A stretch of 64,000 bases of DNA from Eledone cirrhosa (lineage: Eukaryota). Below, piece by piece: positions 6,429 to 6,711 of the stretch (position 1 is its first letter; each line of letters opens with the position of its first letter). The stretch lies in the NCBI GenBank assembly GCA_964016885.1, contig OZ024740.1:370946001-371010000 (forward strand), read 5' to 3'. The notes beneath the pieces were generated by a model that was not told the origin of the DNA, searched no databases, and saw only the letters and a list, made by a program, of their open reading frames with translations. Both the position numbers and the translations under genes were made by a program.

Positions 6429-6711
6429 TAACAAAGGAGGTGTGGTAAGGAACCAGATGGACCATAACGCACCAGAGTACTCAATACTTAGGGTAGTAGA
6501 GTGGGTAATAGGAAAAAGTTTGACGCCGACGGCAGAGCTCAAGCCGTTTCGACGACTATTTCTGGGCGACTAGTCCAGAAATAGCCGTCGAAACGGCTTG
6601 AGCTCTGCCGTCGGGGTCAAACTTTTTCCTATTACCCACTCTGCTACCCTAAGTATTGAGTACTCTGGTGCGTTATGGTCCATCTGGTTCCTTACCATAC
6701 CTCCGTTGTTA
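6429..6711. mobile_element. Fold-back mini-element family D, copy 1 (3' half of an HHR)
   Basis: About 140-bp arms centred at about 6570 with a few mismatches, between (TA)n tracts; contains GAAAC-GGC...GCC-GTC at 6590-6612. Confidence 0.8.

Follow-up and report, generated by a model that had tools for sequence, protein, structure and literature searches.

The palindromic repeats of family D in the genome of Eledone cirrhosa are solo head-to-head (inverted) pLTRs of a Hydra-clade Penelope-like element (PLE), stub insertions that number in the thousands per genome. Judged from the sequences at which their arms begin and end, the stubs are probably the products of two target-primed cDNAs, each copied until it ran off at the RNA 5' end, which were then end-joined. 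The element type itself is ordinary, and an inverted pLTR with a tail is already known as a PLE product from parts of PMC8557442 and PMC3846280. The origin of inverted and tandem pLTRs and the action of the hammerhead in vivo are treated as open questions in passages of PMC8557442, PMC2377424 and PMC11167929. Tens of thousands of cDNA ends together with young intact ORFs permit predictions at the level of single nucleotides, for the two sites of RT start, for the 5' ends of the RNA (+1 and +42) and for the jump products, and make the mechanism directly testable.

Half-hammerhead palindromes in the window and the genome

Four head-to-head palindromes have been identified in the window, which is the whole stretch of 64,000 nucleotides analysed, at 6429-6711, 35624-35815, 36036-36227 and 37041-37231. 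Each of them is bordered on both sides by (TA)n or (TG)n runs. On the sense arm of each copy, GAAAC and stem III are followed by the GTC triplet and GGGG, and the 5' half of the ribozyme is missing, so that the four palindromes with half a hammerhead, first described from the letters of the window without database searches (the sequence-only reading), are real. The same reading had placed the long arm on the left, the right or both sides, and it is found on both sides in copy 1, on the left in copies 2 and 3 and on the right in copy 4. Positions within the pLTR are counted with +1 at the A of TYAGT, a word that precedes GAAAC; GAAAC is then at +19 and cleavage falls after +41. The features are as follows.

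6242..6429, no strand: (TA)n target microsatellite left of copy 1; similar runs lie at the other ends
6429..6565, minus strand: copy 1 inverted long arm, pLTR +140 to +4
6566..6570, no strand: copy 1 junction filler of 5 nt
6571..6711, plus strand: copy 1 direct long arm, -1 to +140, beginning at the stop site, with the A at 6572
6579..6617, plus strand: 3' half of a type I hammerhead in copy 1, predicted from the sequence and the fold of the parent (stem II 3' strand, GAAAC at 6590, stem III, GTC at 6610-6612, stem I 3' strand)
6630..6711, plus strand: 80-nt tail of copy 1, from the short (+58-61) to the long (+138-141) end
35624..35765, minus strand: copy 2 inverted long arm, reaching +2, with a 2-nt TA overlap with the other arm
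35764..35814, plus strand: copy 2 short arm in direct orientation, from +11 up to the short end
36036..36227, no strand: copy 3, a local tandem duplicate of copy 2 and its microsatellite flanks, with 1 difference in 192 nt
37041..37101, minus strand: short arm of copy 4 (subfamily C) in inverted orientation; its last base is exactly the A of the TTAGTT of this subfamily
37102..37231, plus strand: copy 4 direct long arm, without 7 nt of the stem II strand preceding GAAAC

The arms of copy 1 differ at 5 sites, 2 of which are variants recurrent in the family, and its long plus long type is rare (3/146). In view of their single difference and common flanks, copies 2 and 3 represent one local duplicate, and the turn that had been claimed for all four copies therefore stands for four palindromes and for three events, not four separate ones. 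The 3'-half sequence that had been given as an example differs in copy 1, which has TGCC instead of AGCC, and the sense arm of copy 4, which belongs to another subfamily (C) than the remaining copies, is without the TAGC..TC strand. An Rfam scan of the window returned no hammerhead and hairpin noise only.

The centre of symmetry had been described as a stem II strand, a loop and a second stem II strand. Its location upstream of GAAAC is correct; the left GACGGCTA, however, is not the ribozyme's own 5' strand but the antisense of the 3' strand, and the own 5' stem II strand of the parents reads G-N-T-CGGCTATT. What had been taken for a loop is merely the overhang of the arm that reaches further, and the native loop is not retained.

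An exact pattern of two head-to-head arms at most 30 nt apart detects 9,908 palindromes in the 3.0-Gb genome and 0 in the reversed control, and the palindromes are therefore not due to chance. The pattern for a single arm, which samples about 3 of 4 arms, has 51,568 matches. Subfamily C contributes 4,989 sampled arms, and its loop differs from that of subfamilies A and B. The presence of about 10,000 copies, with some centre sequences recurring, is what would be seen if palindromic masters spread ready-made units in the manner of MITEs or SINEs. We regard this as very unlikely. Arms of a single haplotype meet in centres of many different forms, a given asymmetric centre is found whichever of the two arms extends further, and all of the 32 long pairs have a junction of their own once one segmental duplicate is removed. 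A MITE or palindromic master, in which a fixed internal sequence is copied whole, was rejected on this variation of the centres within one haplotype, and the descent of all copies from one such master, which the sequence-only reading had named as fatal to its own model, is not seen.

Several other repeats have been noted in the window. A second PLE-like family (36635-36815), with 17 exact-pattern matches in the genome, is a palindrome with intact CUGAGGA hammerheads, in which a short end is paired with a long end and the turn lies about 20 nt upstream of the core. A perfect palindrome at 29933-30336 has arms of 202 nt and no spacer, and a small imperfect palindrome at 36421-36468 adjoins a (TA)n run. 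Minimal CUGAUGA...GAAA hammerhead-like motifs also occur at 8191, 28536, 2949 and 3068. A dispersed repeat of at least 13 copies (789-49640, families D17-D19) is SINE-like.

The parent element

Copies that extend further upstream carry a complete type I hammerhead, with stem I ACCCC/GGGGT, a UUGANAA core, G10.1-C11.1 and a long stem II whose loop measures about 30 nt, followed by the half seen in the window. A parental copy with the 5' half, as anticipated by the sequence-only reading, does exist, and complete hammerheads number at least 4,378 exact matches; the core, however, is not the expected CUGANGA but UUGANAA (U3-A8), with all four bases occurring at N7. A U3-A8 core is known in PLEs of Schistosoma, as described in part of PMC4209133. 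The hammerhead fold is the MFE structure or lies within 0.8 kcal/mol of it in 3/3 parents, and 93% of 260 cells are paired. Covariation is seen in 3 stem II pairs changed on both sides, all in one subfamily C sequence and matched by 19/500 shuffles, and the unconstrained fold of the parent hammerhead is no more stable than shuffles (z -0.33). Having the conserved core and three stems, the parent ribozyme is assigned by prediction to type I.

The parent units, arranged head-to-tail, are 3.1-3.5 kb in length and have intact ORFs of 717-719 aa; at one locus (L146) an intact 719-aa ORF lies downstream of the hammerhead. Read by eye, this ORF comprises an RT with YRDD followed by a C-terminal VIY...YIG endonuclease core that has a single Cys and is without CCHH. 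It also contains DKT in place of DKG, a CNC-x5-C linker (CxCx5C), and CNLC (CxxC) and CKH (CxH) around E and N, and its N-terminal RWK position reads RWR. A Pfam scan of the ORF pieces and of the whole ORF assigned no family. The ORF has 2,054 homologs, nearly all unnamed, with identities of 38-54% among the matches listed, and the best homolog carries PF01541, which we take to be the GIY-YIG family. Insertions sit in (TA)n, as in Hydra PLEs. This motif set is that of the Hydra clade of PLEs, to which the predicted protein, and with it the parent, is provisionally assigned. The inverted PLE pLTRs holding half a hammerhead that the sequence-only reading had recognised are confirmed.

Two other element types have been considered and rejected. 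A Naiad PLE, suggested by the N-terminus, would have an N-terminal endonuclease, CCHH and no canonical hammerhead; the endonuclease here is C-terminal and a hammerhead is present. In non-LTR retrozymes the monomers stand in tandem and every one of them has a type I hammerhead that is complete; the stubs of family D are head-to-head, with half a ribozyme per arm, and are therefore not retrozymes.

Ends of the arms and the origin of the stubs

One arm of an insertion typically ends at +58-61 and the other at +138-141, 80 nt apart, both into (TA)n. This long plus short pairing is seen in 58/66 elements of an unbiased stretch (C1, first 13.84 Mb), in 108/110 short palindromes examined and in 30/33 long inverted pairs with complete ribozymes. 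The same two outer ends bound multi-unit arrays, and the short end also terminates direct copies. We infer that the two positions may be internal RT start sites, by analogy with a Poseidon PLE which, according to part of PMC11167929, cuts and extends both strands in vitro, starts RT at two internal sites bounding the tail and has a protein predicted as a dimer.

The inner ends are sharp. Of 110 unbiased arms, the end lies between -4 and +16 in 89 and between -49 and -5 in 4, the other 17 continuing through the ribozyme, with an extension rule that may overshoot by a few nt of microhomology. As the sequence-only reading had expected, the turn points are clustered in the stem II/loop II region and are not scattered. 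In subfamilies A and B the arms stop inside loop II at a TTAGT or TCAGT word, which TATTTA precedes by about 30 nt. We take the stop word to resemble a Drosophila-type initiator and TATTTA to resemble a TATA box. Arms of subfamily C, which has a different loop, also accumulate at TTAGTT when inspected by eye, with a smaller group near -12. The junctions have a few nt of microhomology or short fillers. At L102, L144, L149 and L156 the centre fillers are copied from the neighbouring arm, in a manner that presumably resembles polymerase theta end joining.

The junctions also carry an extra base. Where one arm reaches +1, its partner starts at +2 and a single base lies between them, the 100 listed of 602 matches have a templated A in 80 rows, C in 18, T in 2 and G in 0; with 18 C among the 20 rows other than A, an untemplated G before +1 is indicated. 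A G at this place is absent from all 100 parents among the matches listed. An extra G as a copied cap has been discussed for L1 (PMC4038843), and such a G before +1 is the mark expected from cap copying. Part of PMC2377424 describes transcription of the D. virilis Penelope from an internal promoter in the pLTR. Together, the stop word and the extra G suggest that +1 is a capped transcription start within loop II, and the 5' copy transcribed from such a start would be without the half needed for self-cutting. Two points count against a single capped start at +1, namely the second groups of ends at -3/-4 and, in subfamily C, near -12, and the TATA-like word at about -30, which is imperfect in subfamily A and absent from the sole subfamily C parent aligned.

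It is also conceivable, though unlikely, that priming was twofold and that +1 is a structural pause, at which RT stalls on stem II/loop II folded within a longer RNA. In subfamilies A and B the stop does fall on the 3' strand of an inner hairpin, and the ends are spread across -4..+16. A pause would not explain why subfamily C, with another loop, stops at the same AGT, nor the untemplated G before +1 in 18-20 of the 20 informative rows among the matches listed, and the run-through arms cross the stem with few stops inside it (4/110).

A second, rarer inner stop is found at the cleavage site. Arm contexts starting at +40..+42 number 9/306, one palindrome (L197) is centred on the ribozyme cut, and two elements (L235 and L251) stop there twice. 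These +42 cDNA ends may be traces of the ribozyme cut after GUC, that is, of the predicted self-cleavage. Counted by eye among the 100 genome-wide matches listed, about 11 end at +42, fewer than the approximately 18 at +38/39, which counts against a stop at the cleavage site.

In the proposed run-off of two primed cDNAs, the endonuclease would cut both strands of (TA)n, and each 3' end would prime RT at one internal site (+58-61 or +138-141) on RNA usually derived from one source locus. Both cDNAs would be extended to the physical 5' end of the RNA, mostly the capped start at +1, whose copying would leave the extra G, and sometimes the ribozyme cut at +42. Host end-joining would then trim and join the two cDNAs. 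The ribozyme would look 'decapitated', as the sequence-only reading had put it, because the transcription start lies within it. Inverted insertions of greater length, and tandem arrays, would have the same two ends and differ solely in the distance travelled by RT.

The sequence-only reading had proposed a different origin, in which the nascent cDNA snaps back on the ribozyme's own stem II and primes its own second strand. Most of the short copies are indeed centred within about 25 nt upstream of GAAAC. A snap-back of this kind requires the native loop and 5' strand between the arms; both are lost, and the arms ending in that interval are the 4/110 given above. The exact junction predicted for it has 1 match in 3.0 Gb, and this locus is a jump to an ORF fragment. 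Furthermore, the second PLE family of the window turns upstream of an intact hammerhead, and stem II is therefore not a general cause of palindromes. We consider this origin hardly credible.

Self-priming need not depend on stem II. A cDNA started at the long site could use a short microhomology close to its own 3' end to fold back and copy itself, with later deletions at the centre giving the asymmetry, which is close to the idea of Arkhipova et al. 2013; self-priming is proposed for such palindromes in part of that paper (PMC3846280). The likeness of arms within one insertion is predicted by snap-back and counts against twin priming: 38 of the 88 pairs readable among 110 are identical at +42..+58 vs 8.7% at random, private variants are common to both arms in 27/32 long pairs, and some centres have short templated fillers. 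Snap-back also needs the tail-bearing arm to contain the short arm, and this is contradicted by the extents of the arms, whose lengths are independent. Among 29 long pairs of the long plus short type (one segmental duplicate excluded, some pairs picked by their long arm) the long arm reaches further by more than 100 nt in 13, the short arm in 12, by 0.1-2.5 kb, and in 4 the difference stays within 100 nt. In 6/58 short elements the arms have no overlap, a figure restricted to non-overlapping cases; four scores of 'further by >20' stem from mutated arms (L128, L141, L157, first L158).

The fixed short end, which also terminates direct copies and arrays, speaks against self-priming as well. So do the discordant arm pairs in which each of the two haplotypes recurs elsewhere (10/50 vs about 2.4% by chance, with two or three of the 10 possibly G-run slippage); in the long pairs the excess of discordance at polymorphic sites is modest and alignment-noisy (L162, for example, is misaligned). 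Arms of mostly common origin that nevertheless combine two haplotypes in 10/50 discordant pairs point to two cDNAs, usually from one source and sometimes from distinguishable templates. Deletions at the centre after insertion could be the source of short-range asymmetry. On balance, self-priming appears quite unlikely, and the run-off of two primed cDNAs is preferred.

Long products and comparison with known systems

Arms continuing into the ORF have 341 matches, 45 of which were examined; 28 pass through the ribozyme, 16 do not and 1 is ambiguous. In 12/15 loci without run-through, the primed arm stops, resumes at +202..+959 and heads 5'-ward again, with no (TA)n in between. The point of departure is +1 in 7 loci, +2 in 1, +4 in 1 and +41/42 in 3. 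We take these jumps to reflect two physical 5' ends of the RNA, together with end-to-end jumping of RT between templates onto truncated RNA 3' ends, a reaction known for the R2 RT (part of PMC8857657). Only 1/7 of the +1 jumps has a cap-type base, which weighs against the capped-end reading, and three of the 7 may extend 1-3 nt upstream. Had RT jumped from the cap onto a cleaved 3' end, a duplication of +1..+41 would be expected; 0 of the loci examined have it. In one insertion (L202:1467-2193) the segment +1..+254 occurs twice, each time with an identical junction, which suggests that RT jumped repeatedly on a single short RNA or copied a small circle.

Arrays have up to 4.5 units, with 0-7 substitutions within an array and 5-53 between arrays; two alternate as A-B-A-B and two are mosaic. 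A circular template has been proposed for tandems (part of PMC4209133). A single circular template for all arrays was rejected on account of the mosaic units at C1:377.7M and C2:11.1M, and a circle fits only some arrays. Run-through is usually common to both arms. Taken with the A-B-A-B and mosaic arrays and the missing +1..+41 duplication, this means that the long products are accounted for by a multimeric read-through RNA primed at its last pLTR and that no jump is needed.

Some of the arrays have features of their own. The 4.5-unit array at L215-L216 (G000:C1:91.47-91.49 Mb) has its truncated end next to a 55-nt ORF segment repeated in tandem at least 51 times, which looks as though RT had copied one stretch repeatedly. 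In the arrays of L215-L218 (C1:91.47 Mb and C1:437.2 Mb) the full units follow A-B-A-B at 4 sites and 1 site, respectively, and the partial unit of the C1:91.47 Mb array departs from this order. Two templates, a dimeric source or the duplication of a two-unit block are the options for such alternation.

A broader reading is offered tentatively, with slightly more doubt than confidence. The stubs may be failed 'strong-stop' products that reveal the PLE cycle, in which the ribozyme would cut in vivo, RT would always prime 60 and 140 nt from the RNA 5' end, and the ORF would be reached only by wrapping from the 5' to the 3' end, through an end-to-end jump or along a ligated circle, the RNAs being held by a dimer. 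If true, one process would give rise to solo palindromes, jump chimeras, partial tandems, 4.5-unit arrays and the regeneration of the pLTR. Our reserve reflects the fact that the long products are explicable without a jump and that a circle suits only part of the arrays.

A twin-priming or run-off account for PLEs was not found in a search of the literature available without subscription. The closest relatives of the parent are the Hydra-clade PLEs of Craig et al. 2021 (parts of PMC8557442), which likewise have a single ORF with RT followed by a GIY-YIG-type EN, DKT, a CxCx5C linker, CxxC and CxH and no CCHH, (TA)n targets, a hammerhead near the 3' end and an inverted truncated copy with a tail. 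The element described here differs from them in having RWR for RWK, a unit of 3.1-3.5 kb vs <3 kb, a U3-A8 core with long stem II where theirs is a canonical hammerhead, a tail of 80 nt vs 30-40 nt, and tens of thousands of arms.

The Poseidon PLE of Anolis, PAc (Frangieh et al. 2024, parts of PMC11167929), is similar in its two internal RT starts that define the tail, the cutting and extension of both strands, AT-rich targets, a hammerhead just upstream and a predicted dimer. PAc belongs to another clade; the portions of that paper report no reads ending at the hammerhead cut and leave inverted insertions unexplained, whereas fossil cDNA ends are present here at +42 and at the likely cap. In L1 twin priming, as described in part of 10.1101/2024.12.14.628481, both target ends also prime cDNA and the inversion is joined by microhomology, a likeness that extends here to the non-overlapping arms of 6/58 elements. 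In L1 a minority of outcomes are of this kind, the second site varies and there is no duplication, whereas here it would be the rule, with both sites fixed and both cDNAs copying one stretch.

The PLEs of Adineta vaga (Arkhipova et al. 2013, parts of PMC3846280) share the head-to-head pLTRs, an optional tail on one arm, a palindromic junction and TATA/Inr-like words within the pLTR. The mechanism proposed for them is self-priming, possibly with an antisense template, whereas the arm extents seen here favour two primings. The hammerheads of PLEs and non-LTR retrozymes (parts of PMC4209133 and 10.64898/2026.07.22.740005) resemble the present one in being of type I within the pLTR, in the U3-A8 variant and in opposite-strand pairs, and cleavage together with a circular template has been proposed for their tandems.
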